DNA of 59,868 nt from a virus (Duplodnaviria > Caudoviricetes). The number at the start of each line of letters is the position of its first letter. Within the stretch, counting starts at the first letter, position 1. Positions 30,319 to 56,477 of the stretch are shown one piece after another. The notes beneath the pieces were generated by a model. That model saw only the letters and a list, made by a program, of their open reading frames with translations. It was not told the origin of the DNA and ran no database searches. Position numbers and translations under genes: made by a program. The DNA lies in IMG/VR virus record IMGVR_UViG_3300043811_000165, positions 1 through 59,868 of that record. One strand, 5' to 3'.

Positions 30319-30458
30319 TTGGCCTCATTCGGCATGTGGGCTTCGATCAGCAGACAGCGCCCGGCCAGGAGATGGGTTTTCTCCCCTCGAAGACGGGCAC
30401 CGTCTCCTGGTCGAACGGTAGAGCGGGCGGGTGAAACGGAAAACTACGATGAGGCCAA
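30319..30458. mobile_element. Empty ~140 bp repeat-pair unit (MITE-like) 1
   Basis: Forward repeat + ~32 bp spacer + reverse repeat. Confidence 0.8.
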
Positions 30459-30920
30459 TGCATCCATCTTGTCAAAATCGAATAGCGTTGGACTCGTTAC
30501 CTTCTGTTCCATCGCTCTGAGGTATCCCACTCCATCCGCCCAATACTCGGAAGAGGTGCGGCCGAAGGGTCAAACTGGCACTTTCCGAACCCCGCTCGTC
30601 CGCGATTACCACCTTGGATGCCAAAAACTCGCTATAGGTCGGTTTTTTGCCCACTTCCCTCGCGTGGGACGAATCGCCGGAGGCTGTCTGGACTTCCGGG
30701 ATGGGGCGCGGCTCCGACTCGTTGTAGGGCGTTTTTGGGCTGTTCATAAAACCTCCCTGCATTTCAACACGGATCGGGATTGAAAACAATGGTACTTCTA
30801 GGCCATTGGTACGGTGTTTACAAATCAGATGTTTTCCGATAGACTCCGTTCCATGGTTTGGCCTCATCGGGCATGTGGCTTCGATGGCAAGCCGGATCGT
30901 TCGACCAGGAGGGGTTTTGG

Positions 30921-31631
30921 ATGGCTTTCGACTTGCAAGTTGTGGTGAACGGCGCGGTGGAAGCGGCGATGAAGGACGGCGGACCCGTTGAGAAGTTGGT
31001 TTCCGAACAGGTGAATAAGGCGATTGCGGAAGCGTTCATGTCGCAGTTCCGAACCTATTCCGATTTCGGAAAGGCGGTCCAGAAGGCAGTTGCCGACGCT
31101 CTCACCTTCGACCCGAATAAATTCGATATCCAGCGGTATCACCTTCTGATTCGGGATGTCGTCAAGAAGCGCGTTGAAGAAAAGATGACGCAGGAGTTCG
31201 CGGTAGAACTGGACAAGTTGCTCGCGGATCTTCATGAGCCCGTTCCCGCTGAACTGAAACTGTCGGAACTGGTCGCGGCGTTCATTGAGCATTTCGAAAA
31301 GGACAGTTACGCGCGCAAACAGGCCGACCGCGTTTCGGTGAAGGTGGGGACGACAGACTACGGATTCACGCACATCTACTTGTACCCAGACGGGAGCCAG
31401 AAGAAACCATACTCCTCTCACTACGACATGGGCCTCCACCTGGACAAAGAGGGCGTCGTCTACTCCGTGGTGATTAACGGCGAATCGATTGATAAGAAGT
31501 TCTTTCTCTCCAGAAAACGAGGCTTCGAGCGGCTGCTGGTCGGCCTCTACATGCAAAAAAGCAGGATCGTGCTGGATTCCTACGATAGTGCCTACAAGGA
31601 AGAGCCGGAGGATGAATGCAGTTGCGCATGA
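30921..31631 (+). CDS. Conserved hypothetical phage protein (cassette cargo)
   Basis: ATG after the AGGAGG of a repeat; 236 aa. Confidence 0.75.
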   Translation: MAFDLQVVVNGAVEAAMKDGGPVEKLVSEQVNKAIAEAFMSQFRTYSDFGKAVQKAVADALTFDPNKFDIQRYHLLIRDVVKKRVEEKMTQEFAVELDKLLADLHEPVPAELKLSELVAAFIEHFEKDSYARKQADRVSVKVGTTDYGFTHIYLYPDGSQKKPYSSHYDMGLHLDKEGVVYSVVINGESIDKKFFLSRKRGFERLLVGLYMQKSRIVLDSYDSAYKEEPEDECSCA

Positions 31632-31851
31632 TGAGGCGCGTCACCATAAAGAGTGAGCAATTCACTAGTTCCGTTGTTCTCGTTCGACCGCCATATCCGA
31701 AGGTCGGCGACGAAGTCACTGGGCATCTATGCGGCGTCCCTGTGAATGGGATAGTGACCGCCGTTAAAAAAGAGACGGGATTTATCATAACCCCTCCTGG
31801 TCGGGCGAACAAACGTCGCGCGAAGTCAGCGAAGCCGATGGAGGCCAAACC

Positions 31852-32502
31852 ATGAAAACCGCTGCGATCTATGCCCGCGTCTCCACATCAGACCAATCCG
31901 CAGAATCCCAACTGAGCTCCCTGCGTGACTACGCATCCCGAAGAGGCTTTTTCGTCTACCGGGAATACACCGACCACGTGACCGGCGTCATTTCCAAACG
32001 AAAAGAGGGGAAGGGAACCGAGTATCAGGCGCTGATGCACGACGCGAAGCAGAAGCGGTTCGATGTAGTGCTGGTCTGGAAGTTCGACCGCTTCGCACGT
32101 TCGCTCAAAGCCCTGATCGAAGGCCTTCAGCTTTTCCAGGAGTTGGGCATCGACTTCGTTTCGGTGACGCAGGACATCGACACGACGGTTTCGATGGGCC
32201 GGTTCTTCTTTCAGATCGTCGGTGCCTTCGCGGAGTTCGAACGGGAGATGATTGTAGAGCGGGTGCGGAGCGGTTTGGATAACGCGCGAAAGAAGGGTGT
32301 GAAGTTGGGAAGGCCGCGCGCACATCCGCCATACGTGGAGCAGGTTGTCCTCGAACGGTTCAAGGCAGGAGATTCTTATCGGGAGATTGGAAAGGCGGTG
32401 GGCATGTCCAGAAACTCAGCGTATGCGATAGTACAAAGGCTCAATGGGTTGGCCTCATCGGGCTTGCCGTCTGCGGCCGGGAGCGGGAGCGTTCGACCAT
32501 GA
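31852..32502 (+). CDS. Small serine recombinase (resolvase/invertase family) with C-terminal HTH
   Basis: YARVSTSDQ, VWKFDRFARS, AFAEFEREMIVERVRSGL..ARKKGVKLGRP, HTH. Confidence 0.95.
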   Translation: MKTAAIYARVSTSDQSAESQLSSLRDYASRRGFFVYREYTDHVTGVISKRKEGKGTEYQALMHDAKQKRFDVVLVWKFDRFARSLKALIEGLQLFQELGIDFVSVTQDIDTTVSMGRFFFQIVGAFAEFEREMIVERVRSGLDNARKKGVKLGRPRAHPPYVEQVVLERFKAGDSYREIGKAVGMSRNSAYAIVQRLNGLASSGLPSAAGSGSVRP

Positions 32503-32849
32503 GGGGTTTTGGTGAGAAGCGCGTCAAAGGTCGCCATAAGATGAAGAATCGCAAACTGAGAAAAAATCCTGCGTTTCTGACGCTCGGCAAACTCCCCGAT
32601 TTAATGCCGGTCGGGTCCGTGATCCCGATTGATATCAACAAGGTTCAGGACGACGGTTTTTCTCGGATGGCCGCTGACCTGATGGTTTCGGCGTCTCTAG
32701 TGAATGCAACCCCGGGCGAGAAAATGCTGATCGCCGCTGTCATTCCGAGCTTCCTCAAAATGATTCGTCCGAAGAAGAAGTCCAACAAGATCTCTAAAAC
32801 CCCTCCTGGTCGAACGGACGGACCAGAAGCGCAGCACACAGCCGAATGA
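32499..32849 (+). CDS. Hypothetical basic cargo protein
   Basis: Between inverted repeats; start uncertain. Confidence 0.5.
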   Translation: MRGFGEKRVKGRHKMKNRKLRKNPAFLTLGKLPDLMPVGSVIPIDINKVQDDGFSRMAADLMVSASLVNATPGEKMLIAAVIPSFLKMIRPKKKSNKISKTPPGRTDGPEAQHTAE

Positions 32850-32875
32850 GGCCAAAGAAAGAAAGGAATTGATTC

Positions 32876-33337
32876 ATGTCCCTAATCACAGTCCCATCCC
32901 CCCTCCCCGTGCCCATGCCCGGTGGAGGCCCACGCAATGGATACCAGTGGCGATTTAACCAGCGCTACTACGCGAAACGCATTCCCGCCCTCCAGCCGTT
33001 TTCCTACGGCCTGGCGGCGGCATTTTTCCCCAACCGAACCGCGCTGACGCAGGAGCAACTCACGGCGCTGGCCGATAAGTTGTATGACTGGGTCGCACCT
33101 GGTGGCCCCGGCGTGTACGGGCCGGAGCACGTCGATTTCGACCAGCAGACGGATTATTGGCAATGGGACCCGTACGGTACAGCGTACGAACGGCTGGTCG
33201 TGTACGGGTATGAGCGGGTTCCCATCGGAACGGGGAACACACTGCAGCCGATTGAAGTGGTGAATCCGGCAGACTTGCAGGGGCCTCCGGTTCCTGGGAA
33301 GTATTTGCTGGTAACGTGTGACATAAATTTGCTTTGA
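32876..33337 (+). CDS. Hypothetical protein
   Basis: RBS AAGGA; ends just before a repeat. Confidence 0.7.
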   Translation: MSLITVPSPLPVPMPGGGPRNGYQWRFNQRYYAKRIPALQPFSYGLAAAFFPNRTALTQEQLTALADKLYDWVAPGGPGVYGPEHVDFDQQTDYWQWDPYGTAYERLVVYGYERVPIGTGNTLQPIEVVNPADLQGPPVPGKYLLVTCDINLL

Positions 33338-33403
33338 TGATTTGGCCTCATCGTAGTTGAGGCTGCGATGGGGCCTTTCGAGCGTTCGACCAGGAGGAGT
33401 TTT

Positions 33404-33901
33404 GTGGAACTCGATAAAGTGGGGACATTGATAAAAGGCACCGAGCATCGGGACGCAATTCACGTTGCAATCGCCCCGGTATTCGCCGGAGAGGTTATAA
33501 ACCCAGGAGAGCATGTGGGCTTTCATGTCGGCGATGCGGCCACCGTATTTCGGGAATCATCTGAGATCGAAGCTATTGGTATTGTTGATCCGTATCTGAG
33601 AAGGGCCGTCGAAATAGGCCAACGATTCTTCATCTTTTTGTATCCTGGCACAGTGACATCTCTCAGGCACCAATGGACCCACCCCGCGTTCAGGGAACCT
33701 GACGAAATTCCTGAGTCGGAACAATACCTGCGGATGTTCGCCGCTAGGAATGATTCCACTTACGAAGATATTTTAGAAGGCCTGTTCCGCGGGGATGATG
33801 AGCGAGAGATTCCGGGAGAGTTCTGGTACCACTTTCGAAAGGTGACCGGAAAGGATGTTCCTGAAAATGAACGACCCTACTTCTTTCGTTGCTACTGCTA
33901 G
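33404..33901 (+). CDS. Conserved hypothetical phage protein (cassette cargo)
   Basis: RDAIHVAIAPV..GIVDPYL..LYPGTVTSLRHQWTHPAF. Confidence 0.75.
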   Translation: MELDKVGTLIKGTEHRDAIHVAIAPVFAGEVINPGEHVGFHVGDAATVFRESSEIEAIGIVDPYLRRAVEIGQRFFIFLYPGTVTSLRHQWTHPAFREPDEIPESEQYLRMFAARNDSTYEDILEGLFRGDDEREIPGEFWYHFRKVTGKDVPENERPYFFRCYC

Positions 33902-33979
33902 GCAGATAACCCCTCTTGGTCGAACGCTCCAACCCACCCGCGCAGACCGATGCCCGATGAGGCCAAGATAAAAAACACA

Positions 33980-35077
33980 ATGCCGTTGGACCCACTCGCC
34001 CTATTGCACAAACAAGGAAAGGAACTGCTCAACGTCCTTTCCTCCGGCCGCGAATCCTCGGATCTTATCCCAGCGAAGGTCCTGGAGCAACACATCGCGA
34101 TTCTAGGAAAAACCGGCAGCGGTAAAAGTTACACGGCCAAAGGCATAGTCGAAACCCTCCTGGCGCAAAAACAGCGAGTGTGCGTAATCGATCCCACGGG
34201 CGTCTGGTGGGGACTTAGATCCGATTCAACCGGGAAGAAACTGGGATTTCCTATTATCGTGCTAGGAGGGGAGGGGGATCTGCTCCTGAACCCGGACCAC
34301 GGCGCCGCGATTGCGGAGATCATCGGAACCACCGACACATCCGCTATTCTCAACACCCGCACAATGACGATCAAACAGCGCACGGGCTTCTTTGCCGATT
34401 TCGCGGAAACGCTGCTGCGAAAGAACACCGGGCCTTTGACGCTGGTGATCGACGAAGCCCACCTGTTCATGCCGCAGACCCGGCCGGGAGACGTCGCCGG
34501 TACACGGATGCTCGACGCGGCGAACAACCTGGTCAGCCTCGGCCGCGGAATCGGGCTCCGGATCATCCTCATCTCCCAGCGGCCGGCGAAAGTGCACAAG
34601 GACAGTTTGACGCAGGCGGAAACACTGATCGTTATGCGCCTGATAGCCCCTCAGGATCGCAGAGCCGTCGAAGATTGGATCGGCGAGTGGGCGCAGCCCC
34701 ATGAGGGCCGGGAATTGCTGCGATCGCTCCAGTCGCTTCCTACGGGCGAAGGATGGCTTTGGGCTCCGGAGCTGGGAATTCTCGATTATGTCGAGTTCCC
34801 GCGCATCAAAACCTACGATTCGAGCCGGGCGCCCGATGGAACGAAGCGGTTGACGGAGCTGCCAGCGTTGCGGAATGCTGTGGACCGGCTGAATGTCCAG
34901 GTGATTGCGGAGCGGTTGAAAAACGTTCCCCCTCCTGGTCGGACGGACAAACGGAGGCGCAAAGACGAAGAGTTGAGGGAGGCCAATGAATCGGCCTCTT
35001 CGGGCTCTGATCCTTCGACCGATCTTCCTACCGTTCGACATGGGCAGGCTTCGGAAGGGCCGAAAAGTGGCTCCTAA
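33980..35077 (+). CDS. HerA/FtsK-superfamily P-loop ATPase; candidate genome-packaging ATPase
   Basis: Walker A GKTGSGKS, VIDPTG, Walker B LVIDEAH, GR.G and SQRPA motifs. Confidence 0.85.
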   Translation: MPLDPLALLHKQGKELLNVLSSGRESSDLIPAKVLEQHIAILGKTGSGKSYTAKGIVETLLAQKQRVCVIDPTGVWWGLRSDSTGKKLGFPIIVLGGEGDLLLNPDHGAAIAEIIGTTDTSAILNTRTMTIKQRTGFFADFAETLLRKNTGPLTLVIDEAHLFMPQTRPGDVAGTRMLDAANNLVSLGRGIGLRIILISQRPAKVHKDSLTQAETLIVMRLIAPQDRRAVEDWIGEWAQPHEGRELLRSLQSLPTGEGWLWAPELGILDYVEFPRIKTYDSSRAPDGTKRLTELPALRNAVDRLNVQVIAERLKNVPPPGRTDKRRRKDEELREANESASSGSDPSTDLPTVRHGQASEGPKSGS

Positions 35078-36356
35078 AGCCTGGTACAACGAAATAGATC
35101 CGAAGAAAGCGGCATGGCTTCGAGAACTGATCAAGCGCGGACTGATCGCGCCAGGAGACGTGGATGAACGATCAATTGCCGATGTTCGGCCCGCCGACCT
35201 TGCCGGATACACCCAATGTCACTTCTTTACCGGAATCGGCATCTGGAGCTACGCGCTCCGTCTCGCCGGGTGGCCCGACGAAAGGGAAGTCTGGACGGGC
35301 TCCTGCCCCTGCCAGCCCTTCAGCGCGGCCGGCAAAGGTGAAGCGTTCGACGACGAAAGGCATCTTTGGCCAGAGTTCTTTCGACTCATCGAGGCACGAC
35401 GACCTGTCGTATGCTTTGGCGAACAGGTTGCGTCGATCGACGGACTCGCTTGGCTCGACCTTGTTCAATCTGACCTGGACCGTGCGGATTACACCTGCGG
35501 GGCGGTCGATCTGTGCGCTGCGGGCGTCGGAGCCCCTCACCGAAGGCAGCGTCTTTATTGGGTGGCCGACACCGCGATCGTCGGGAGGCGGTCCAGATTT
35601 CGCAATCGAGCAGCGGCAGGAGAGCGGGGGATTGAGTCTTCAAACGCCTGTGGCACTGTCGGGTTGGCCCACGAGTCGCGCGGAGGACGCGGAATCGTCG
35701 GGAATGAGGCACAGCCGGGGAGTGGCCGACACGTTGACGGCCGTGGCTGCGTTGACGGGATGGGGAACGCCGGCGGCGCGGGATTGGAAGTCGGGGGACG
35801 CAAGTCAGGAGACGCTGGACAAGAACGCGCGGCCGTTGACCGAACTGGCGAAGCTGGCAGGATGGCCAACCGCAACTGCGACGGACGGGCAGCGGGGCGG
35901 GGAGCAGACGGAGGAGATGAGCGGTTCGTCCCTGACACAGTGGGCGAAGAATGGCGGGATGGGGAACGCCGAAAGCATCGGACGGGGAAGGCGGGCGAGA
36001 TTGAGCGGATGGGTGACTCCGAAGAAAGCCGACGGGGAGCAGGGCAGCGAATCGATGATGCGGGGCAACCTGACGCTGTTGGGCGAGGCCCGGTTAACGG
36101 CTTTTGGCGAGACTCCGATTGGGTACTTACTCGGCCCCAACGGGTGGGAGATCGTCCCGGCTTGCGGCCAGTTGAGCCCGGCTCATTCCCGCTGGCTAAT
36201 GGGTCTTCCGAGCGCGTGGGACGATTGCGGGGTTACGGCGATGGCATCGTTGCGCAGTGCGCGCAAGCGTTCATCGAAGCATACCTGTCCCTCACCGCCA
36301 CAACGGACCATGCACCGGAGCCGGAATGTAGCCCACAAGGTACGACAACAGAATGA
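35067..36356 (+). CDS. C5 cytosine DNA methyltransferase
   Basis: FFTGIG (I), SCPCQPFS (IV), FGEQV (VI), HRRQRLY (VIII), LRGYGDGIV (X). Confidence 0.9.
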   Translation: MAPKAWYNEIDPKKAAWLRELIKRGLIAPGDVDERSIADVRPADLAGYTQCHFFTGIGIWSYALRLAGWPDEREVWTGSCPCQPFSAAGKGEAFDDERHLWPEFFRLIEARRPVVCFGEQVASIDGLAWLDLVQSDLDRADYTCGAVDLCAAGVGAPHRRQRLYWVADTAIVGRRSRFRNRAAAGERGIESSNACGTVGLAHESRGGRGIVGNEAQPGSGRHVDGRGCVDGMGNAGGAGLEVGGRKSGDAGQERAAVDRTGEAGRMANRNCDGRAAGRGADGGDERFVPDTVGEEWRDGERRKHRTGKAGEIERMGDSEESRRGAGQRIDDAGQPDAVGRGPVNGFWRDSDWVLTRPQRVGDRPGLRPVEPGSFPLANGSSERVGRLRGYGDGIVAQCAQAFIEAYLSLTATTDHAPEPECSPQGTTTE

Positions 36357-36501
36357 TCAGGAAAATCACGGCGACGATCACCCGAACGATCTGACCGATG
36401 GGAACGGGCATTGGGATCATGTCGATGATCCACCAGACCACTGTGAAAATCAGGCCGATGATCAGGAGCGTGACGAGCATTCCAATAAGACCTGTGAGCA
36501 T
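36292..36501 (-). CDS. Small two-TM membrane protein (holin-like)
   Basis: 69 aa, two hydrophobic helices. Confidence 0.7.
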   Translation of the reverse strand: MLTGLIGMLVTLLIIGLIFTVVWWIIDMIPMPVPIGQIVRVIVAVIFLIILLSYLVGYIPAPVHGPLWR

Positions 36502-36545
36502 GGAAGCACCTTCAGGTAGTGAGATCCTCGAAACGGCTTTTTGTT

Positions 36546-36686
36546 TCGGCCTCCGTCGGCTTCCTGGCTTCGATCAGCAGACAGCGCCCGACCAGGAGAT
36601 GGTTTTTCTACCCGCGAAGATCAACACCTTTCTCCTGGTCGAACGGGTATAGCGGGCGCAGAAACACCAAAGCCCGATGAGGCTAA
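36546..36686. mobile_element. Empty ~140 bp repeat-pair unit 2
   Basis: Same architecture and related spacer as unit 1. Confidence 0.8.
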
Positions 36687-37813
36687 AGGCAAGGATAAAG
36701 CTTCTTACCCACCATATACACTACAATCTGAACCGGAAGCAGAGCGGGATTTGTTACTTCCGAGTAGAAATCAATTTGCAGTTGCGAATCTTTCCGGTAG
36801 AACAGCGGCGGAACCACTGCCCCGTTTTCATAAGGCGAGCCCGGCCCTCCGTTGTAGAAAATATCCATGATCGGAATGTTGGAGAGGGTGACGAAGTTGT
36901 GATCGTAGACCGATAGCGCGCAGATCGGGGAAGTGATCACTTCGGCGCCGCCGCCAGTTAAAAACTGGGGAGTGAACGTCTGGAAAGCGCTGTTCACGGG
37001 CGCGGTAAAAAGCACAAGCGCGGCGACGGCCGGGATTGCGTTCAGAGCAACTACCAAGTCCCCGGTGAGCCCATCGGATAATCCGCCACTGTTCGTTTGT
37101 AACCCCACCGTGATCGCGTTTCCAACCACCGTAGCTGTGACGGGTTGACTTGGACCAAGCGTGACGAAGGCGACCGATATCAAATTGCCGGTAGGACCCG
37201 CAACTTTCGCAGTCACAACCACTGTGCCAGCTTCGGTCGCAAACGTCGTGCTGGCGGCCGACTGCTTCATGATGATCAACTGGTGCAGTTCAAAGTCGTA
37301 ATTGTTGATCGGCGTGTAGGTTGTGACTGGCGCGGAGGGAGCGGTCTGCGTCAGCGTTGCGGTCGTTTGGTAGGTGAAGGATCTGGGCTGATTCTTGTAA
37401 TTCGGGTTGTGAACATTGCCCGGCAGACGTCGGACACCCTGGAACGCGAGCTGCGCCGTCAGATTCTGGGAGGGAAGCGAAATCCCATACAGATCGAAAC
37501 CGATTTGCCCGGTCTCCGGATACCACTCCTCGGGTGCGATCGCCAGCTCGGGGCTGTTTGGTGCCTGGACCGGGTTTGAACTCTGGTAAACGCCCTGCGA
37601 GGCGCGCATGATCTGGAATTGGCCGGTTCCGTTCGTTGCGAGAAGGCGGTTCAATCCGACTACTCGCCGGACTGCGAAGTCTCCGTAGCCTCCCTGGATG
37701 TATACTTGCTGGTTTTGATAGTTGTTTCCATTGGTGAGAGAGGATGCGTTGAAGGCGTAGGTGTACGGAAGATCGTAGTAGCCTGGCGGGGGTGTGTAGG
37801 GCCGGGTTTTCAT
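36683..37813 (-). CDS. Putative virion protein (tandem beta-barrel) with inserted domain
   Basis: Paralog of 38015..39973; ends VGKKLYP. Confidence 0.7.
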   Translation of the reverse strand: MKTRPYTPPPGYYDLPYTYAFNASSLTNGNNYQNQQVYIQGGYGDFAVRRVVGLNRLLATNGTGQFQIMRASQGVYQSSNPVQAPNSPELAIAPEEWYPETGQIGFDLYGISLPSQNLTAQLAFQGVRRLPGNVHNPNYKNQPRSFTYQTTATLTQTAPSAPVTTYTPINNYDFELHQLIIMKQSAASTTFATEAGTVVVTAKVAGPTGNLISVAFVTLGPSQPVTATVVGNAITVGLQTNSGGLSDGLTGDLVVALNAIPAVAALVLFTAPVNSAFQTFTPQFLTGGGAEVITSPICALSVYDHNFVTLSNIPIMDIFYNGGPGSPYENGAVVPPLFYRKDSQLQIDFYSEVTNPALLPVQIVVYMVGKKLYPCL

Positions 37814-38014
37814 GGTTTGGCCTCGCCCCACTTCCCGGCTCGCTCAATTCGATACTTCTCGACAGCGACCGCTTTTCCGCGCACGCCATCTCTTCCACGC
37901 CAGCAGAGAGCCAGTAGCAGGCACCCAAATAACGGGCGGTTTGTGCTCACAGACCACTCCTGGTCGAACGGAGCCAAGTCCGCGCGAAGCCCGAACTGCG
38001 ATGAGGCCAAACCA

Positions 38015-40451: not shown

Positions 40452-40531
40452 TCTGGGCTCACAAAACATCTCCTGGTCGAACGCTCCAGCATGGAAGCGG
40501 AGCCCCGATTCGACTGAGGCTAAAGAATTGT

Positions 40532-44336: not shown

Positions 44337-44342
44337 ATTCGT

Positions 44343-45041: not shown

Positions 45042-45093
45042 TTGGTTTCTTCTGATTTCCTTTCTTTTTATTCGGAGTCAGTTGACCCTAAAA

Positions 45094-46262: not shown

Positions 46263-46264
46263 TG

Positions 46265-48603: not shown

Positions 48604-48965
48604 CGGGCAACCTCCTTCGTAGAGGTTTTGGACCGTTCGACATTCGGAGTGAAGAATAACCAGAACACGAAATTCATTACTGCGACTTTCAGCTTTAGGA
48701 ATCGTCCTCGATTGAGATAGGCCGACATTATTCCGCAGCCATACCTGCACACTTCGCGGAAACATGGTTTGCAGATGGTTTCTGAAGTCTGGGATTCGAC
48801 CACATCGGGATTCATCCGTCGCGAAAACTCGATATCGATTTCGTCCAGATATTCTGAGCCGCCACAATAGGCGCACTTCTTCCAGCCAGGCTGGAGCGGC
48901 GAATGTCGAGCGTCCACTGGTCGCGATTCCGGGATGTGCGGCGAGGCCGACATAAAAAAGAATCC

Positions 48966-49424
48966 CTACCTGCGGCCCTTCTTTCCAAATAGCAACCACA
49001 GAGCCGCAGCGCTGCCGCCGATCACCAGCCAATCCTCACCGGTGATCGAAGAAATGGAGCCCGTCGAAATCGCAGTCTGAACATCGGTGAAAGCCGTAGT
49101 GAACGGAGCCGTGATCGACGTGAGGGACAACTGCCCCATTCCGCCGCCGCACTTCCCGCCGCATCCGCACGAATCGCCGCATCCCAATCCCGACATCCCC
49201 GCGCCATTCCACGCGGCCATCACCGAATTGTTGGGGATCACCATGCCCGTGGGCGAACTGGGCACGAGGGAGTTCATCCCCGCCGTCGTCACCACCGGAA
49301 CCTGAGGCACAGGATATTTTCCGGCAACAAAATCCCGGAGTCCGTTTAAGGAAACCGGGGTTTGCGGAACCGGCCACGATCCCGGCACGAAGTCGCGCAA
49401 AGCGTTCATTCCGATTAGGCTCAT
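48966..49424 (-). CDS. Putative virion membrane protein
   Basis: LRDFV.G..PVPQ.PV x2; C-terminal TM + KKGRR. Confidence 0.7.
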   Translation of the reverse strand: MSLIGMNALRDFVPGSWPVPQTPVSLNGLRDFVAGKYPVPQVPVVTTAGMNSLVPSSPTGMVIPNNSVMAAWNGAGMSGLGCGDSCGCGGKCGGGMGQLSLTSITAPFTTAFTDVQTAISTGSISSITGEDWLVIGGSAAALWLLFGKKGRR

Positions 49425-49434
49425 AAAATTCCTT

Positions 49435-49770
49435 TCATTGCGTTGCACTCTGACCTTGCATGGCCTCGTACGCCACATAACCCACGGCCGCGAGCGCGCC
49501 GACTGCGACCACCGTCCCGAGTTTGCTCGTTCCGCCGACTGCCGCTTTAGAGATCTTGCGCCGCGCGCGTTTCGTTTTCTTACCGACGCGCGAGCCGGCT
49601 GTTTTCAAATCGAAAAACAGCGAAATCGCCACGTAGGAAATCCCAATCACCGCCGCCCACTCGCCCACACCCCAACTGGAGATGTCGCTTGACAGCGAAA
49701 CTTGGCCCAGATCGCCCATACCGATGAGCGGCGCGGATTGGAACGGCGTGATGAGTTGCGCGTCGATCAT
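49435..49770 (-). CDS. Putative virion membrane protein (2 TM)
   Basis: ATGA overlap; two TMs with a basic loop. Confidence 0.65.
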   Translation of the reverse strand: MIDAQLITPFQSAPLIGMGDLGQVSLSSDISSWGVGEWAAVIGISYVAISLFFDLKTAGSRVGKKTKRARRKISKAAVGGTSKLGTVVAVGALAAVGYVAYEAMQGQSATQ

Positions 49771-50120
49771 TTCTTGATCAAATCCTTTAGCAAAAAGAAA
49801 CCGCCTACCGCAGCCGCAATCCAAATCAACGCAGTCGGAATTCCGGTAGCACTCGATATCCCGGACGCCAAACCGCCCGTGACTCCGGCCGTCAATCCTC
49901 CAGCCGCGGCGCCAGCGGTCGACCCCACAACCTGCGCGCCGCCGACGATCAAACCTTTGGTCGCTGTCACGTACAGCGTGTTCGTCGGGTCCGCGCAACC
50001 GAGATAATCCTGGCAGGCCTGTGACAGATAAACGTAATCGAGCAACCCGCAGGGACTCGCGCCGCACGTCGGATCCGTGGCAGGACCGGGCCCGAGTTGC
50101 CCCATTCCGACCAGGCTCAT
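49767..50120 (-). CDS. Putative virion membrane protein
   Basis: GMGQ N-terminus; C-terminal TM. Confidence 0.7.
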   Translation of the reverse strand: MSLVGMGQLGPGPATDPTCGASPCGLLDYVYLSQACQDYLGCADPTNTLYVTATKGLIVGGAQVVGSTAGAAAGGLTAGVTGGLASGISSATGIPTALIWIAAAVGGFFLLKDLIKK

Positions 50121-50341
50121 GCGCTCCTCCGCACGTCATCGTAGGTTTTTATGTTATCGGCGATTTTTGCCCGTGCTTCATGCTCCGAAAGATGATGGCA
50201 ATTAGGACATTCGGCGGAAAGTATCTTGGTACCGTGATATGGAACGGCTAAAATCCATTTCTCGTTTATGGCTTTGCTGACGGCCGCTTTTTCCGTCAGG
50301 GCGGATAGAGTGCGCTCGCAGCGTTCACAGCGAATTGTCAT
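50117..50341 (-). CDS. Small Zn-ribbon protein
   Basis: CERC...CPNC. Confidence 0.6.
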   Translation of the reverse strand: MTIRCERCERTLSALTEKAAVSKAINEKWILAVPYHGTKILSAECPNCHHLSEHEARAKIADNIKTYDDVRRSA

Positions 50342-50739
50342 GGTTTCCTCCGCGCCTGATGGTGAAGAAACTGCATGAAATCTCCAACGATGGGAGGCGC
50401 ACCCGCAGCACGCGTCAGTTCTTCAATCGCTTCGTCGATCTTTTCAGGCGAGAAACCCTCATAGGCTTCCGGGTACGCGGATTCCGGCGTATGCGGATGG
50501 CGCGCCGCAGATCTCACCTTCGATTTTCCATTTGTGTGAGCCGTGGCCAACTGCTTGTCGAGTTCCGCGCGTTTCTTCGGGTCTTTTAAAATCGCGTACG
50601 CATCGTTCAACCGTTGGGTTTTGAGTTTGTCCGGCCGTGGCCCGTCCGGGTGACATTGGCGGACAAGCGCGGACCAAGCTGCGCGGATGACTTCGACGGG
50701 CGCTGTTCGGGAAACCTGAAGGATTTCGTAGGCGTTCAC
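50338..50739 (-). CDS. DnaJ (J-domain) protein
   Basis: NAYEILQV..IRAAW..CHPD..LNDAYAILKDPKKRAELD. Confidence 0.9.
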   Translation of the reverse strand: MNAYEILQVSRTAPVEVIRAAWSALVRQCHPDGPRPDKLKTQRLNDAYAILKDPKKRAELDKQLATAHTNGKSKVRSAARHPHTPESAYPEAYEGFSPEKIDEAIEELTRAAGAPPIVGDFMQFLHHQARRKP

Positions 50740-51107
50740 TTGTGGCCTCCGAAAACACTCGCAAGAATGAACAGCGAAACGACGGCACCGATTCCCAAGT
50801 AAAGATTGGTGTTCGGTACGCCGGGGATGATTGAGCACGTTGCACCAACCGGACACGCCGCGACGACGGCATAGCAGATCGGGTTTCCATCGGGATCTGT
50901 GCTCAGCGCATATCCCGAATCGCATCCCATATCGGAAGGAGTCGAGTAAGACGTCGGAGTCGAGCCCGTCACACAAGCGCCCGTTTGCGGATTCATCACT
51001 GTTCCAGAAGGACACGGTCCAACGAAGGAGGGCGAAGCGATCTGCACGCCGGACGTGTTGATTGTTACTCCTGTGTCCGTCGAATACTGCCCCATGCCCA
51101 TCAGCAT
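50736..51107 (-). CDS. Cys-rich putative virion membrane protein
   Basis: GMGQ N-terminus; C-terminal TM. Confidence 0.7.
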   Translation of the reverse strand: MLMGMGQYSTDTGVTINTSGVQIASPSFVGPCPSGTVMNPQTGACVTGSTPTSYSTPSDMGCDSGYALSTDPDGNPICYAVVAACPVGATCSIIPGVPNTNLYLGIGAVVSLFILASVFGGHK

Positions 51108-51493
51108 GAGGCCTCCGTGAATTGGAGCACGTCGCCGCGTTTCGTTCCTGTGGCTCTGGCGGTCCCTGCCGGAAGTTCAAGGGCCGATGCCGCCGTGAAC
51201 AAACTCCATTCGGAATTTGGTTGAAGTGTCAATGTTGCGAGCACAACGCGGTCAGCATCCAAGAACAAAACATCGATCGAAAACTTCATGTCAACCGTGT
51301 GAACCGAATTGCACGGGGTGATGTGCAGGCCTTCGCCGATTGGTAGCGATTCGCGATTCAGCAAGCCGGTTCTCCGGTCCAACATCGTTACGGCTGTTTT
51401 GACCTGGTTCGCAAGCGTGGTTCCGCGCGTCAGGTTGAACGCCGAGGTAATCCCCGTTGCGCCTGCGAGTCCGAGATGTTGTGTTGCGATCAT
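51101..51493 (-). CDS. DUF192 family protein
   Basis: RRTGLLNR..GEGL..PCNSVHT..MKFSIDVLFLD..ALELPAG. Confidence 0.85.
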   Translation of the reverse strand: MIATQHLGLAGATGITSAFNLTRGTTLANQVKTAVTMLDRRTGLLNRESLPIGEGLHITPCNSVHTVDMKFSIDVLFLDADRVVLATLTLQPNSEWSLFTAASALELPAGTARATGTKRGDVLQFTEASC

Positions 51494-51653
51494 CACTTCT
51501 TTTTTAAAATTGCAATTGCCGCGATTCCGCCGGCCAAAATCCAAAACCATGTTGCATCGGGACAAACTGTTTGACCTTTCGAGGTTCCACAAGCGACCTG
51601 AGGAGAAAACACTGCCTCCCAGGAGTAGCAGCCGGAGAGATCACCCATTTGTT

Positions 51654-51791
51654 TTGGCCTCCTTCGGCAGAGTGGCTTCGACCGATTTTAGAGCGCCCGA
51701 CCAGGAGAGATCTTTTCTACCCGCGAAGTGCGAAACCCACTCCTGGTCGAACGGTAGAGCGTACGCGGACATCGATGCACTTTGAGGCCAA
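51654..51791. mobile_element. Empty ~140 bp repeat-pair unit 3
   Basis: Same architecture and spacer. Confidence 0.8.
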
Positions 51792-51795
51792 CCCA

Positions 51796-52374
51796 TTACC
51801 AACCTCCATGAATCATGCTTGCCGGAATTCCGGGATAATGCCCGAGACCACTGAGCCCGGTTACTCCAGCCGCGGTGTTGAGTAGTTCCACAAACTGAGC
51901 CGGGGCCATCAGCACGTAGCTTCGATTCGCGCCGGTAGCTCCAGCGGCCGATAGCATGGCTTCAACCTGATCGCCGGTCAATGGCGTAACGTTCGGCAGT
52001 TTAGCGTAGTAATACGCCCACTGGTCAATATTCAGTTGCGGCGGATTATTTGGAGTCGCAGTCTGTTGTGCGAGTTGAATTGCCATCGCCAATCCACCAC
52101 TGCTGACATCGGCCTGTCCGCCGTATTCAGTAGTCGCAGGCGTGGCTGAGGTTTGCACCGGAGGATTCGAAGTAAGAGGGGCCGTGCAAATCCCTCCTAC
52201 CATCGTCGACGGCGCAACACAGGGCTGAATAGTGCCTGTCGAAACTGGAGCTGGTGTCGGAGCAGCAGCCGCGAACGAAAATAGATTCGCAAACCAGCCC
52301 TGCTCATACCCGTACCACGCAAGCGCACCGGCTCCGGCGAGTATGATCAGCGAGGTGTAGTCTTGCTGCGCCAT
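51796..52374 (-). CDS. N-terminal TM protein, paralog of 52725..53351
   Basis: IDQWAYYY vs LDNWAYYW; NR....A.QFV. Confidence 0.7.
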   Translation of the reverse strand: MAQQDYTSLIILAGAGALAWYGYEQGWFANLFSFAAAAPTPAPVSTGTIQPCVAPSTMVGGICTAPLTSNPPVQTSATPATTEYGGQADVSSGGLAMAIQLAQQTATPNNPPQLNIDQWAYYYAKLPNVTPLTGDQVEAMLSAAGATGANRSYVLMAPAQFVELLNTAAGVTGLSGLGHYPGIPASMIHGGW

Positions 52375-52737
52375 TTATTGCCCCCCCCCTACTGGGTTCA
52401 ACATCAGCGGGCTGCAATCGGCATTCTTTGGACAAGGAAACTTCGGGTCCAATATTACACCAGCGCCGCCAGTGGTAGGAAGCGGCGATAATACTCCGGG
52501 CGGTGGCACTCCGTTGATCGGAGGACCATAAAGCGGAGGTAACACTGCGGGGGGCTGAGCCGGGGTCAAGACGGAGATCGGAACCATATTACCGCTTCCG
52601 ATGGGCGCGACCGTTGGAACAACAGCAGGCGCGGTTGCGGCGGTTCCAAACCAGTTGTTCTGGTAGCCGTAGTACAGCACGGCGCCGATTCCCGCAATCC
52701 ACAAAATTGGTGTCCAGTCTTTCATCAGTTCACCCAA
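52375..52737 (-). CDS. N-terminal TM Pro-rich protein
   Basis: YGYQNNWF anchor similar to neighbours. Confidence 0.65.
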   Translation of the reverse strand: MGELMKDWTPILWIAGIGAVLYYGYQNNWFGTAATAPAVVPTVAPIGSGNMVPISVLTPAQPPAVLPPLYGPPINGVPPPGVLSPLPTTGGAGVILDPKFPCPKNADCSPLMLNPVGGGQ

Positions 52738-53351
52738 TCGCTATACTGCGAGCTGTAATCGTAAAAGGACTGAAGCCCGGCCGTTCCGGATGCGGGAGTT
52801 CCGCTCGGAGTTGTCTGGTTGATCCAGGCCACGAACTGCTCCGCGCTCACCGCCGCGTTGCGATTGCCTCCGTTCAGCGAAACAATCTGATCCATCTGCG
52901 AAGGTGCGATGGAATTCGGAACACCGAAACCAGCAGGCGCGCCTTCAAACGGCGTGCTGTTCTGCCAGTAGTAAGCCCAATTGTCGAGGTCCTGCGAATC
53001 GGATCCACCGGCCGCGGCTTGCATCAGTGAAATCGCTTGCTGATAGTTGGGAGCAAGACCTGCCCCTGGAGACGTAACTGGAGGAAGCGCGGCGTTTGAA
53101 TTCGAGGCGAGCCATTGCGCGCATGTCGCCGTCGAACTGGCACCCGTGGCCGGATCCACGTAGATTGCAGTGCCGGTTGGGTTCGCCTGGCAGTAAGCCA
53201 GAAGCCCGGTTGATGTGTTGAACGTGTTGGTCGAAGAGGAACCACCGAACCATTGCGCCCAGAGGCCGGAGTTCTGGAGCCACTGATAGACGAAATAGGC
53301 TGCGGCGGCCATGGCACCGTACTTGATTAATTGTTTGGTGTTTTCGTCCAT
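52725..53351 (-). CDS. N-terminal TM protein
   Basis: ATG right after a repeat RBS. Confidence 0.7.
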   Translation of the reverse strand: MDENTKQLIKYGAMAAAAYFVYQWLQNSGLWAQWFGGSSSTNTFNTSTGLLAYCQANPTGTAIYVDPATGASSTATCAQWLASNSNAALPPVTSPGAGLAPNYQQAISLMQAAAGGSDSQDLDNWAYYWQNSTPFEGAPAGFGVPNSIAPSQMDQIVSLNGGNRNAAVSAEQFVAWINQTTPSGTPASGTAGLQSFYDYSSQYSDWVN

Positions 53352-53354
53352 TAT

Positions 53355-53494
53355 TTGGCCTCCGTCGGCGGGGTAGCTTCGAGCGATTTGAGAGCGCCCG
53401 ACCAGGAGATGGGTTTTCTACCCTCGGAGAACCGCACCTTCTCCTGGTCGAACGGGAGAGCGAGCGCGTGAAAACGAATTTGCGATGAGGCCAA
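53355..53494. mobile_element. Empty ~140 bp repeat-pair unit 4
   Basis: Same architecture and spacer. Confidence 0.8.
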
Positions 53495-53499
53495 ATTAT

Positions 53500-54030
53500 T
53501 CATCGTTTCCTCGGAAGTACAACGAGTGCAAACCCCGCTAAAATTCCAGCAGCAATCAGAGGATTATCATTCAGCCACTGGTTGATCTGGCACCAGCATG
53601 AATCTCCCAAAACGGAAACCTGCACTGGCGCATTCGATTGTGTGATGTTCGGCAGCGGTTGCACGATGTTTACGGGCGTCAGAGTAACCGGCGGATTGGA
53701 TGTGGGAGGCGGCGCTGGAGTCGGAGTGATCGGCGTAGGAGCCAGAATATTGCAACCCGGAATACTCGCCTTGTAGGGTGCACACACCGGCGAAGTGCAA
53801 GGCTGCGCACCGCCGAATCCTTCCTGTCCCCAATATCCGCACCAGAAGATCGCCGCAGCATTACCCGTATCCACTCCGCACTGGAAAGGAGCGCACTGAG
53901 CCGCGGTCGCCGGAGTGTTCGCGGGATCGGGAATCGGCGTCCCGTCATACAAAAAGACCGGCCCGTAATTTGAAAACGCGCTCGCGTCGTTGCCCCAGTC
54001 GAAAGCCTGCCCGAGTCCCATCATGCTCAT
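53500..54030 (-). CDS. Putative virion membrane protein
   Basis: GLGQ N-terminus; C-terminal TM + RKR. Confidence 0.7.
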   Translation of the reverse strand: MSMMGLGQAFDWGNDASAFSNYGPVFLYDGTPIPDPANTPATAAQCAPFQCGVDTGNAAAIFWCGYWGQEGFGGAQPCTSPVCAPYKASIPGCNILAPTPITPTPAPPPTSNPPVTLTPVNIVQPLPNITQSNAPVQVSVLGDSCWCQINQWLNDNPLIAAGILAGFALVVLPRKR

Positions 54031-54752
54031 CTGCGGCCTCCGATCAAGCCGGGAAGAATCATCAGCGCGGCAATCGCGCCAACCGCAACGGCCCAGTTTG
54101 GCAGGCCGGAGATCAAATCCGAATTTGTGAGGAACGACAAATCGATTCCGCTGGTTGAACTGGTGGACGATGTCGAACCCGTGGAACTTCCCGCGTCAGA
54201 ACTACCGGCCGGGCCTGGAGGCGCAGTATTTCCGGCTGGAGGAGCGACGGTTTGAAGTTGTTTCTGCGTCGGTTGAACGGTAGGAACTGGAGGCGCAACG
54301 TAAGGCTTATCGCCGCTGGTTTCAGGAACTGCGCCGCCATATTTCGCGTTCAACATCTGGGCGAGTTGAGCGGTCGTGTATGTCGACATCGGCTGCCCGC
54401 CGGTCGTCACGTCGCTGATCGAGGGTGACGGACAATTGATCGTGACTCCCATTGCGTCGACGAACGTCAAACCGGGATTCGATTGGCAGTAGACTGCGTC
54501 CTGTCCGATGTTGATCGGAACTGCGACCAGCGCTGCCAGCGTTTGCCCTTCGAAGGAACTTGCGGGAATCGAGGCGATGTCTGCCGCGACTTCCGTATTC
54601 TGCTGTTGAATGAAGGCGGGATTGTTCAGAATTGAACAGGGGTCTTGAAGCGCTGGTGTTCCCGCTGGTGCGCAGCAGACTTGGAGTCCCGAGTCCCAGG
54701 AGCCTCCATTGGGACAGGTCTGGCCGAAACCTCGAAGCGACATTAAGCCCAT
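54027..54752 (-). CDS. Putative virion membrane protein
   Basis: GFGQ N-terminus; C-terminal TM + GGRR. Confidence 0.7.
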   Translation of the reverse strand: MGLMSLRGFGQTCPNGGSWDSGLQVCCAPAGTPALQDPCSILNNPAFIQQQNTEVAADIASIPASSFEGQTLAALVAVPINIGQDAVYCQSNPGLTFVDAMGVTINCPSPSISDVTTGGQPMSTYTTAQLAQMLNAKYGGAVPETSGDKPYVAPPVPTVQPTQKQLQTVAPPAGNTAPPGPAGSSDAGSSTGSTSSTSSTSGIDLSFLTNSDLISGLPNWAVAVGAIAALMILPGLIGGRR

Positions 54753-54755
54753 GAT

Positions 54756-54894
54756 TTGGCCTCCGTCGGCATATGGGCTTCGATCAGCAGACAGCGCCCG
54801 GCCAGGAGATGGGTTTGCTCCGCGCGAAGACGGGCACCTACTCCTGGTCGAACGGTAGAGCGGGCGCGCACATCCTCGACTACGATGAGGCTAA
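54756..54894. mobile_element. Empty ~140 bp repeat-pair unit 5
   Basis: Very similar to unit 1 at 30319. Confidence 0.8.
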
Positions 54895-55644
54895 TCAAAG
54901 GAGCACCACCAACGCGAGTAGCGCCGCGCCGATCAAAAGTTCCGTCAAATCCGGTGTGGACGTCGATAAAGTTGGGCTTGCCGTTGTCGCCGCCGATCCA
55001 CCCGGAGCCGTCGCAGACGTTGGGTCCGGTTGAACAAAAGGATCGTTCGCGATCGGATCACGCATTCCGACGAACCAGTTCCAACATACCGATCCCGATC
55101 CGGCCGCACCCCACGGAGTGTAGGTTCCATCGGCGTTCCATCCCCCCTGAGAAACCTTCCATGTGCATGCGCCTTGTTGCCGGTCCGAGATACAACGTTG
55201 ACCAGCCGCGCCGAGCTGCGCGTTGCCGCACGCCGCTTGAAGTGCTGCCCACGTGGTGTCAAACGTGTTGAGCGCCGCTGTTTGCATCGATACGTAGCGA
55301 ATCGACGAAGATGTGTAGGCCGTGACATTCTGCACGAGAATCGCATCCGCCTGGTTTGCGATCTGGGTTGCTTCGATGCACGTTTGGCCGCAACCTTTGA
55401 ACAAATTGGCGATAGCAATTCCGACTCCCACCAGTGCCGCGATCGCCGCGCCCACGACCGGCAGAGATAAACCCAAAATCGTCATTGTGGAACCGAGCGC
55501 TCCGAGAATCGAAGTGGTGGTCGTGATTCCCGTTGCAGCGATCGACGCCGCGGTGCTCACGCTCGTTGGAACAACCTGCCCCATTCCCCACGTCACGTAG
55601 GGATTGCGAGGAACGATGTGGTAGCTGTCGCGGATTGCGAGCAC
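54895..55644 (-). CDS. Putative virion membrane protein (hydrophobic N-terminal helices, Cys-rich ectodomain, C-terminal TM)
   Basis: Sequence pattern. Confidence 0.7.
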   Translation of the reverse strand: MLAIRDSYHIVPRNPYVTWGMGQVVPTSVSTAASIAATGITTTTSILGALGSTMTILGLSLPVVGAAIAALVGVGIAIANLFKGCGQTCIEATQIANQADAILVQNVTAYTSSSIRYVSMQTAALNTFDTTWAALQAACGNAQLGAAGQRCISDRQQGACTWKVSQGGWNADGTYTPWGAAGSGSVCWNWFVGMRDPIANDPFVQPDPTSATAPGGSAATTASPTLSTSTPDLTELLIGAALLALVVLL

Positions 55645-56334
55645 TTATCGTTTCCCTCCGATGAGGTTTGGCAAAATAATAATCGCCGCGATTGCCCCGA
55701 TAATCAAGGGCACATAGGGTCCGATGGAGGCAAGTCCAGCCGTCAGACTCGCGCTCGCGTTCACGGCCGTCGACGTGGTCAGTTGGCCCGTCGCCGGGTT
55801 GTAAATCAGATTCGTTCCCGCAACCTGGTATGGTCCGCCCGCCGCAGTGCGGATCAGGGAAACCGCAGAATTGCCCGTGGCCGCGATCAGTTGCGCCGTC
55901 TGTGCGGGTGTGAGCCCGGCCGCCTGCGGTGTGAGCGTCACGCTTCCACCGGTCGACACGGTGTATCCGCAGTTTGACATTTGTTGCGCGGTCATTGAAC
56001 TCAGGGGCACTGAATCACAGGAAACGTCCGGTACCGTGATGGGCGTCGTGCCGCCGCCGGTGGGCTCGGTGTAGGTGGTCGTTATTTCCGTGTCGTCTCC
56101 GCTGTCGTCCTGACCCAGTCCCATGAAGCCGTGGAAGCGCGGCATCAGCCGGGGTCGACCACAATCTGCGCCGGGCGGGCAGCCCAGACCTGGAGCGGAA
56201 TATCCCTCTCCCAGAATTCCCGCGTGATCCGGCCAGTTCAAGTCGAAGAATACGGAGATGTCGTTCGGAGTGTAGGGATCTCCTGTAAACCCCGGAGGGT
56301 AGGGCATGGAGGAGGGGACTGTTAAAATGCTCAT
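55645..56334 (-). CDS. Putative virion membrane protein
   Basis: GLGQ motif; C-terminal TM + GGKR. Confidence 0.7.
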   Translation of the reverse strand: MSILTVPSSMPYPPGFTGDPYTPNDISVFFDLNWPDHAGILGEGYSAPGLGCPPGADCGRPRLMPRFHGFMGLGQDDSGDDTEITTTYTEPTGGGTTPITVPDVSCDSVPLSSMTAQQMSNCGYTVSTGGSVTLTPQAAGLTPAQTAQLIAATGNSAVSLIRTAAGGPYQVAGTNLIYNPATGQLTTSTAVNASASLTAGLASIGPYVPLIIGAIAAIIILPNLIGGKR

Positions 56335-56337
56335 GAT

Positions 56338-56477
56338 TTGGCCTCCGTCGGCAGAGTGGCTCCGTGGAATTTGAGAGCGCCCGACCAGGAGAAGCCTTTT
56401 CTACGCGCGAAGAAAAAACTGTCTCCTGGTCGAACGTGGCAGCGGACGCGGGAACCTGGAAACTTCGATGAGGCCAA
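56338..56477. mobile_element. Empty ~140 bp repeat-pair unit 6
   Basis: Same architecture and spacer. Confidence 0.8.

Follow-up and report, generated by a model that had tools for sequence, protein, structure and literature searches.

Inverted pairs of a repeated intergenic element and the gene slots they bound in a soil virus-like replicon

The IMG/VR virus record IMGVR_UViG_3300043811_000165 carries six compact units without genes of their own, each made of a forward repeat, a short spacer and a reverse repeat. We analyzed the entire record as one window (the whole stretch of DNA under study), a single contig of 59,868 bp with 55% G+C that is best called a virus-like replicon. A sequence-only reading of this DNA had placed the units at 30319, 36546, 51654, 53355, 54756 and 56338 and had taken them for cargo-less cassettes or acceptor sites. 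All six were present as claimed, in one orientation, and the forward and reverse repeats proved to be a single intergenic element of ~66 nucleotides (nt) in its two orientations. Below, A denotes an AACG-type copy of this element, B a GGCG-type copy, and A' the antisense A arm within a unit. The six units are listed in map order.

30315..30464, minus strand: unit 1 (30319); B arm 30315-30381, spacer 30372-30403 (32 nt), A' arm 30399-30464
36540..36688, minus strand: unit 2 (36546); B arm 36540-36607, spacer 36599-36631 (33 nt), A' arm 36625-36688
51649..51797, minus strand: unit 3 (51654); B arm 51649-51716, spacer 51708-51739 (32 nt), A' arm 51731-51797
53348..53500, minus strand: unit 4 (53355); B arm 53348-53418, spacer 53409-53440 (32 nt), A' arm 53432-53500
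54750..54900, minus strand: unit 5 (54756); B arm 54750-54818, spacer 54809-54840 (32 nt), A' arm 54836-54900
56331..56482, minus strand: unit 6 (56338); B arm 56331-56401, spacer 56392-56422 (31 nt), A' arm 56415-56482

Anatomy of the units and of the element family

On the plus strand, every unit carries the expected 14-mer CGCCCG(A/G)CCAGGAG, starting at 30358, 36585, 51694, 53395, 54795 and 56378, and a reverse 14-mer, CTCCTGGTCGAACG, starting at 30404, 36632, 51740, 53441, 54841 and 56423. The spacer had been put at ~31 bp, a length found exactly in unit 6, while in unit order it measures 32, 33, 32, 32, 32 and 31 nt; all six spacers contain TTTTCT(A/C)C(C/G)(C/G)(G/T)CG(A/G)AG. The 14-mer pattern, allowing at most one mismatch, matches the window 16 times compared with 0.03 expected from shuffles, and a profile search of the window recovered exactly six close inverted pairs.

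The organization of a unit is best followed on the minus strand, on which the adjacent genes of five of the six units are encoded. An upstream stop codon is followed by an antisense A copy (TTTGGCCTCATCG ... CGTTCGACCAGGAG), the spacer (sense consensus ..CTTCGCGGGTAGAAAA..) and a sense B copy, which ends in GACGGAGGCCAAA-NN-ATG and supplies both a GGAGG and the downstream start, the end of the B arm being GGAGG-N7-ATG. The distance between the stop codon and the A' arm is 13, -3 (an overlap), 4, 5, 0 and 2 nt in unit order.

Unit 1 lies between two convergent genes, 28757-30316 (+) and 30472-30867 (-), so its B arm is an orphan that leads no gene. At unit 2, gene 36683-37831 (-) ends in a TAG that overlaps the A' arm at its outer end, and a small conserved minus-strand open reading frame (ORF), 36292-36501, is found further off beyond the B arm. 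The gene upstream of unit 3 (51796-52374, -) stops 4 nt from the A' arm, and the ATG at +5 after the B arm opens a 51-codon ORF that is conserved in relatives and has a DUF192 gene next to it. In the remaining three units, the ATG of the downstream gene lies 3 nt past the B arm: gene 52725-53351 (-, 208 codons) at unit 4, gene 54027-54752 (-, 241 codons) at unit 5 and gene 55645-56334 (-, 229 codons) at unit 6. On their other side, gene 53500-54030 (-) stops 5 nt from the A' arm of unit 4, the stop of gene 54895-55644 (-) abuts that of unit 5, and gene 56480-57160 (-) stops 2 nt from that of unit 6. We collected 18 compact units from five genomes. All but one (17/18) combine an AACG-type with a GGCG-type arm, the other being A + A, and inspection of the alignment by eye placed a start codon after the GGCG-type arm in 15 of the 17.

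The paired copies are a minority of a much larger family, spread over most of the window.

958..58875, both strands: element family, 62 profile hits

These 62 matches (30 on the plus and 32 on the minus strand) occupy 4,172 nt, or 7.0% of the genome, and score 17-60 bits, with all at 36-60 bits except six weaker ones, five of which are partial. In leader orientation, the alignment of 57 copies reads aaaaCCc-CTCCTGGTCG(AA/GG)CG, a variable ~15 nt, CGCGAAGC, ~9 nt and GA(T/C)G(A/G)AGGCCAAA-NN-ATG, with the consensus aaaaCCc-CTCCTGGTCGaaCG-ctc..a.......cgCGaAgc-c..aagccc.atGAGGCCAAa..At; across these copies the 14-mer is invariant and the GAGGCCAA block is present. The outer end, which can also be written GAGGCCAAA-NN-ATG, reads as a ribosome-binding site. 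The inner end provides a second one on the other strand, CCAGGAG(G)GGTTTT-N-GTG, and the element in opposite orientation ends CCAGGAGGGGTTTT-N-GTG. By an automated criterion, which includes one wrong-frame call at 2834, a supported gene start comes right after the outer end in 10 of 14 GGCG-type and 11 of 34 AACG-type copies, and is led from the inner end in 9 of the 34 AACG-type copies. Examples of the latter are the DUF3310 gene at 11147, the phrog_2600 gene at 30921 and the gene at 33404. Inner ends are used on both sides of the following arrangement, in which each copy leads a gene by its CCAGGAG and a start codon.

16063..16258: mirror arrangement at a divergent gene junction; the outer ends of two A copies face each other across 54 nt

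A third leader type, TGTCGAGAAGT ... CGAGGCCAAA-NN-ATG (repeat family D14), precedes several late genes. It is located at 5669-5724, 37809-37864, 39969-40024, 41568-41623 and 42645-42700 (also 43868-43906), before genes on the minus strand; its ribosome-binding end, CAT-NN-TTTGGCCTCG, is kept, and GACTTCTCGACA replaces the 14-mer. The relative G002 has a further leader variant, TGTCGAACG. One copy of the element (34926-34992) is situated inside the 3' end of an ATPase ORF, and its outer end abuts the ATG of a methylase.

The family extends across a small group of related genomes. The element was found in six IMG/VR contigs (49 loci), and the 14-mer, with at most one mismatch, has 67, 26, 6, 10 and 8 matches in the relatives G001 to G005, respectively, with none for the reversed control. 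It makes up 4.5-7.7% of the clade's three complete ~60-kb genomes and 2.0% of the distant G004. A metagenome scan yielded nine loci in six contigs, two of which are the G001 and G005 records themselves (100% identical). Among 185,579 prokaryote genomes we found no true copy of the element: the 38 pattern matches all score at most 21 bits against the profile and are thus chance matches that give no clue to the host. In the searched literature neither 14-mer was found, the only hits being 11-mers, and the papers listed for these deal with unrelated subjects.

Orientation, slots and their states in relatives

The orientation of the element alternates along the genome (42 of 57 possible switches, permutation p=0.0003), and every interval is therefore bounded by an inverted pair. 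The two kinds of interval differ in content. Counting an interval as conserved when at least half of it is covered by protein-level matches in relatives, 18 of 20 outer-to-outer intervals are conserved compared with 8 of 15 inner-to-inner intervals (Fisher p=0.02; Mann-Whitney p=0.011), and in six of the inner-bounded intervals the coverage is only 0-7%. Outer-bounded intervals are the backbone and inner-bounded intervals hold variable cargo. The units are inner-bounded intervals of minimal length, and are therefore empty slots: the 14-mers of the six units are 31-33 nt apart, and in filled copies and relatives 140-1,800 nt with accessory ORFs separate them.

The cargo itself includes ORF 6737-7336, HD/YfbR-like by a weak Pfam match (E=0.012, below the cut-off), which lies in a low-coverage inner-bounded interval and runs through the next element to a TGA inside GAATGAGG. 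Such read-through of the following element is seen in both this ORF and 12400-12999, with ends given by a TGA inside GA(A/T)TGAGG or by a TAA overlapping the next ATG, so that ~20 C-terminal residues are encoded by the repeat. The 219-codon cargo ORFs 6677-7336 and 12340-12999 showed no homology to each other outside these element-encoded ends. A different kind of inner-bounded interval is the 1.3 kb at 25320-26611, which has no ORF filling it and no match to a relative, a tRNA or Rfam.

Comparison with the relatives revealed the same junctions in both states. Both G001 (63 kb) and G002 (58 kb) align collinearly with the window, at a DNA identity of 65-85%. At unit 56338, the window, G002 and G003 all have the compact junction, and G001 has an insert of ~555 nt in mid-spacer, with a 178-codon ORF between the arms; together with the lower conservation of inner-bounded intervals, this bears out the claim that the units are the cargo-less, acceptor state of a slot that is filled elsewhere. 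At the junction of genes 47599-47853 and 47854-49035, the window has a gap of 4 nt, G001 has a B arm, ~370 nt and an A arm, and G002 has a 206-nt insert free of the element. In place of unit 54756, G001 and G003 have a gene for a ~120-aa membrane protein, and G002 has its homologue of cargo gene 33404-33901 at another junction.

Presence and absence of the units themselves also vary among relatives, in support of the earlier reading. Units 30319 and 54756 have no counterpart at the matching junction of any relative, and G001 has units at the 53500/54027 and 40532/41569 junctions, where the genes of the window overlap. The orthologue of unit 36546 is at 37099-37264 in G001. Unit 51654 has an orthologue in G001 (24301-24464) and in none of the other relatives, and unit 53355 has one in G002 (21232-21397) and, again, in none of the others. 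At one further site, the window retains a single arm.

45845..45915, minus strand: lone B arm; a complete compact unit is present here in L108, G001, G002 and G005

L108, obtained from the metagenome scan, is the closest fragment from a relative (87% identical to the window over 1.3 kb). The homology between the two stops directly past the 14-mer at 45845, where a different 1.7-kb block follows in the window. Such breakpoints cluster at the elements: of the 132 end points of blastn matches (at least 200 nt) to G001 and G002, 21 are no more than 20 nt from an inner edge, where 4.9 were expected (p=0.0002), and 12 are near an outer edge, against an expectation of 5.3 (p=0.01).

Two of the units look like the product of a recent copy or gene conversion. 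Units 30319 and 54756 had been singled out as near copies, and they are indeed 93% identical over 112 nt, compared with 64-71% for the other three copies of family D5. In a tree of the 18 units they group as sisters (support 93/92), and the forward arm of unit 36546 has the same filler (CTTCGATCAGCAGACAGCG) as both. The simplest history would be a copy or gene conversion from the 36546 lineage inside this genome, because 36546 has a counterpart in G001 and the other two have none. A second group in the tree (support 83/79) unites G1_30677, G5_4949 and G2_31046, which are orthologous units upstream of homologues of gene 45094-45759, with the long-branched A + A unit G1_26256. The tree leaves the remaining units unresolved; pairwise identities are 52-82% among 16 units, without the long-branched G1_26256 and G2_17818. 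Only two sequencing runs, both soil DNA metagenomes, contain the genome. In the contigs of these runs covering 36500-56499, the joints are cross-matches between repeat copies, and a contig break falls at unit 54756.

Competing explanations

With moderate confidence, we regard the six units as the minimal, unfilled form of a near-universal gene junction, that is, as linker cassettes akin to promoter-early stem-loops (PeSLs) or to start-associated sequences (SAS) and their extended form (ESAS), which are shuffled by recombination and are not autonomous mobile elements. By analogy with such linkers, it is about an even call that slots become filled or emptied, and are copied, through recombination at the invariant 14-mers, as a linker-mediated exchange of modules distinct from transposition. 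What the sequences show directly is the anatomy, in which the AACG copy sits antisense behind the upstream stop, the GGCG copy provides the GGAGG and ATG of the downstream gene in sense, and the stretch between the two 14-mers is the slot, together with the alternating orientation, the contrast between slots and backbone, the filled and empty states, the breakpoints and the recent copy. In the transcript, the two arms would pair (8 bp in the outer and 13 bp in the inner stem) and mask the downstream Shine-Dalgarno (SD) sequence (GAGGCCAA) with TTGGCCTC, which lies 0-13 nt past the upstream stop (or overlaps it, at unit 36546). Ribosomes terminating on the upstream gene might then unmask the SD, resulting in translational coupling or attenuation inside the operon. 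We put forward this masking of the SD by TTGGCCTC, and its opening by terminating ribosomes, tentatively; it fits the tight spacing from stop to arm and from arm to start, as well as the position of the units in co-directional operons. The use of the element in both orientations would also follow from an "anti-SD ... SD" design, which equals its own reverse complement. A more speculative extension, which we think rather doubtful, is that the element is a strand-symmetric, self-masking ribosome-binding cassette at nearly every intercistronic junction, whose pairs delimit plug-in slots, allowing the exchange and immediate expression of accessory genes with no dedicated recombinase.

Several observations weigh against parts of this account. 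Unit 30319 heads no gene. A DNA-binding protein would account equally well for a 14-mer that is invariant in both orientations, and the clustering of breakpoints at the 14-mers arises in part from alignments that run to the last conserved block. As for the pairing, each unit does fold, with an outer stem of 8-10 bp, an inner stem of 11-15 bp, ~30 unpaired nt between the stems and z-scores of -0.9 to -5.5, and in the alignment of the 18 units, with stems of 8 and 13 bp, 97.9% of the cells are paired. The sequence-only reading had proposed that units fixed at orthologous positions and with covarying structure would point to a regulatory RNA. The orthology was found in part (51654 in G001; 53355 in G002; 56338 in G002 and G003), and the covariation was absent: 14 of 21 pairs are invariant across the 18 units, the covariation term is 0.01, and pairs changed on both sides number two, a count matched by 61 of 500 shuffles. 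Two inverted copies of one element are bound to be complementary, so the pairing of the arms is no proof of an RNA function. Nor did the folding energy show a strand preference (sense more stable in 9 of 15 units, Wilcoxon p=0.28); the T-to-C change of 30319 and 54756 costs the sense RNA a base pair that the antisense RNA retains; and single copies gave no convincing fold (alifold -3.9 and 0 kcal/mol; mean z -0.45 and 0.04).

The main rival of the linker explanation places the signal in the DNA: the 14-mer would be the site of a virus regulator, similar to a stoperator, or the upstream half of a non-sigma-70 promoter with CGAAGC as its downstream half, and a compact unit would be two such sites back to back. 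Its best argument is the extreme conservation of the 14-mer, which is invariant or nearly so across relatives though their genes are only 65-85% identical. The spacing from the 14-mer to the ribosome-binding site is fixed, and the variants track gene classes, GGCG preceding the larger and structural genes and TGTCGAGAAGT several late genes. The elements are, moreover, the only candidate signals, because sigma-70-type promoters and intrinsic terminators occur at the level of shuffled sequence (6 promoter consensus sites in 40000-59868 versus 8.4 expected, none of them in a unit; 25 terminators versus 22.9 expected). The alternating orientation weakens this explanation, as a promoter would then be directed antisense at the 3' end of many genes; the stoperators of L5 are oriented with transcription. 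In addition, the genome has no sigma factor region 2, the Pfam and PHROG scans identified no DNA-binding regulator, and the divergent junction 57161-57262, where promoters must lie, is without an element. A resemblance of part of the motif to the -35 element of some ECF sigma factors was considered and dropped, as none of the papers listed contained the hexamer. Taken together, we consider a DNA-level signal unlikely. A structured RNA as the sole role of each unit (a processing site, a terminator or a regulatory RNA), with the link to variable genes incidental, appears extremely improbable. The two-stem folds are stable, the loop motif is conserved across genomes, and the AACG/GGCG difference yields G-U pairs in the sense RNA, but the lack of covariation and of strand asymmetry described above speaks against it, as does the fact that most copies are single. 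No U-tract follows the stems, the ~30 nt between them are not complementary, and Rfam gave no match in the window at the gathering score and one unrelated weak match in 51000-57000 at E up to 1. A sense-strand-specific pairing through G-U was also considered and rejected, one substitution favouring the sense and another the antisense strand, and the energies being unbiased.

Mobility was the proposal of the sequence-only reading, which saw the units as similar to miniature inverted-repeat transposable elements (MITEs). In a broader form, the units would be selfish miniature DNA, of the MITE type or resembling the doublets of repetitive extragenic palindromes known as REPINs, copied by an enzyme acting in trans, with the ribosome-binding features being secondary. 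The anatomy is that of such a doublet, as two ~66-nt inverted arms enclose a short, geneless spacer, and REPIN arms are about three times shorter than those observed here. The presence and absence of units at orthologous junctions, a near-identical pair 24 kb apart with one member an orphan between convergent genes, and the 7% share of the genome all agree with mobility. Yet the flanks of the six units, which are start- and stop-codon contexts, have no consistent direct repeat that would represent a target-site duplication. Searches of the genome found no Y1 transposase of the type associated with such repeats (RAYT; PF01797, 0 matches at E up to 0.01, where a control search matched 6 of 14 genomes) and no tyrosine recombinase (PF00589, which covers IntI); the Pfam and PHROG scans of the window contained no other transposase family, and a host-encoded enzyme is possible. 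Further points against transposition are that the arms abut stop and start codons with fixed geometry and are thus built into gene signals, that three units are located at orthologous sites and have diverged about as much as their flanking genes (62-81%), and that the prokaryote genomes hold no true copy. The MITE-like part of the earlier reading was consequently not upheld, and we judge the broader form quite improbable. An enzyme is available in the window for yet another possibility, namely that the elements are sites for the encoded serine recombinase (31852-32502), which would flip or exchange segments between inverted sites in the manner of a shufflon or of cassettes. The assignment of this protein is clear (Pfam Resolvase 1.2e-38; PHROG "DNA invertase" 1.6e-51; best solved relative "DNA-invertase" 4e-23), its gene is conserved in G001 and G002 at 58-64% identity, and both the alternating orientation and the sharp breakpoints at the edge of the 14-mer count in its favour. 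A resemblance of the inner flank to invertase half-sites was given no weight. No inverted segment was seen, however, among matches of at least 200 nt, which share one orientation per relative (36/36 in G001, 30/30 in G002, 10/10 in G003 and 11/11 in G005), which argues against a shufflon driven by the invertase. Dyad symmetry is absent from the 14-mer, the invertase gene itself resides within an ordinary backbone interval, and sixty sites are, to our knowledge, far above any known invertase system. We therefore hold this possibility to be very unlikely.

Conserved boundary sequences that drive both expression and gene exchange are a long-proposed basis of phage mosaicism, and the clear cases known to us are few, namely PeSLs and possibly SAS/ESAS. 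The present family adds an uncultivated soil virus clade with an unusually regular grammar, in which filled and empty states are visible at the same junctions. If the proposed mechanism is true, it would offer a compact, testable model for how viruses gain accessory genes and express them immediately, as well as a portable intercistronic part for synthetic operons.

Related systems and other features of the replicon

The closest parallel is with PeSLs of T4-type phages, which are described in the cited sections as spanning a stop codon, a motif, a stem-loop, an SD and a start, as numbering ~50 per genome and as occurring at the end points of insertions and deletions (PMC2839356; PMC4122927). 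Like them, the units are small repeated intergenic cassettes that reach from an upstream stop to the next SD and start, with a possible stem-loop (PMC2839356, in the part cited); this span is seen here with the ATG 3 nt past the B arm in 53355, 54756 and 56338. The same cited sections place PeSLs next to variable or ORFan genes and at the boundaries where related phages differ by an insertion, deletion or replacement (PMC2839356; PMC4122927), a location also found for the elements of the window. The differences are that the element lacks a sigma-70 -35/-10 consensus and is G+C-rich, that it serves in either orientation, having a ribosome-binding site at both ends, and alternates along the genome, and that a stem-loop forms only where two copies pair.

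SAS of cluster K mycobacteriophages are, according to the cited portion of the source, 13-bp SD-containing repeats before gene starts, about half of them with 17-bp imperfect inverted repeats upstream, separated by a spacer of 4-13 bp (PMC3203893). Their 11-19 copies nearly all point the same way, ESAS remain associated with the same gene families, and the function is given as unknown in that portion (PMC3203893). The conserved SD block directly before the starts of a subset of genes is shared with our element, and the inverted repeats are analogous to the paired arms. In contrast, the arms here are ~66 nt long, the spacer is 31-33 nt or holds genes, the 62 copies alternate, units are gained and lost, and the sequences are unrelated to those given in the cited portion. 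The family is thus distinct from PeSL and SAS/ESAS in sequence, size, density (7%), two-ended use, alternation and the paired, empty-slot form.

Other systems are more remote. REPINs are likewise extragenic inverted doublets of a short repeat that can form hairpins and also occur as singlets, as far as the cited text of PMC3116915 goes; the differences are the missing RAYT, the translation signals in the arms and the location in a virus instead of a bacterial chromosome. Stoperators of cluster A mycobacteriophages resemble the 14-mer as asymmetric, highly conserved short sequences at many sites of a phage genome (PMC9283540, in the part cited). Here, by contrast, orientation follows no rule relative to transcription, no cognate repressor was found with Pfam or PHROG, and the 14-mer is embedded in a 66-nt unit with ribosome-binding sites. 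The attC sites of integrons differ in that the window has no IntI, and that its single copies alternate in orientation and are mostly unpaired. Membership in MITEs, REPINs, integrons or Rfam families was rejected, as the defining tests failed.

The remaining gene content was surveyed with Pfam and PHROG scans of the window, which assigned the following genes along with a C5 methyltransferase, a DnaJ protein, a DUF192 protein and a lectin-fold protein.

1565..2581: replication initiator
2910..3512: endolysin
12999..13661: lytic transglycosylase
31852..32502: small serine recombinase, invertase family
33950..35077: FtsK/HerA-type ATPase

The scans matched no tailed-phage capsid, portal or large-terminase family in the window, and the replicon may be a non-tailed virus or plasmid-like. 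Two relatives are classed in IMG/VR as having direct terminal repeats. The phage collection contained no relative, a tRNA scan found nothing, and PADLOC returned nothing for eight proteins, including the three genes of an element-free block (19788-22633).

This block, 19139-22768 (3.6 kb), comprises three ORFs of 410, 314 and 182 codons and is without any element. It has lower G+C at codon positions, matches from relatives cover only 15% of it, and it gave no Pfam match at the curated cut-off (a weak HlyD_2 match has E=0.0054 and 16 bits) and none in PHROG; it is probably a recent acquisition. Two overlapping plus-strand frames, 34986-36356 and 35461-36519, each match DNA methyltransferase families in Pfam and PHROG, and the region 34986-36519 could represent one frameshifted gene or two methylases. 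A direct repeat of 185 nt (37641-37825 and 39801-39985, 82% identical) spans the 5' ends of two large neighbouring minus-strand genes, 36683-37831 and 38015-39973. Each of these genes matches one and the same region of G002 and G005, and they may be paralogues with a common N-terminus.

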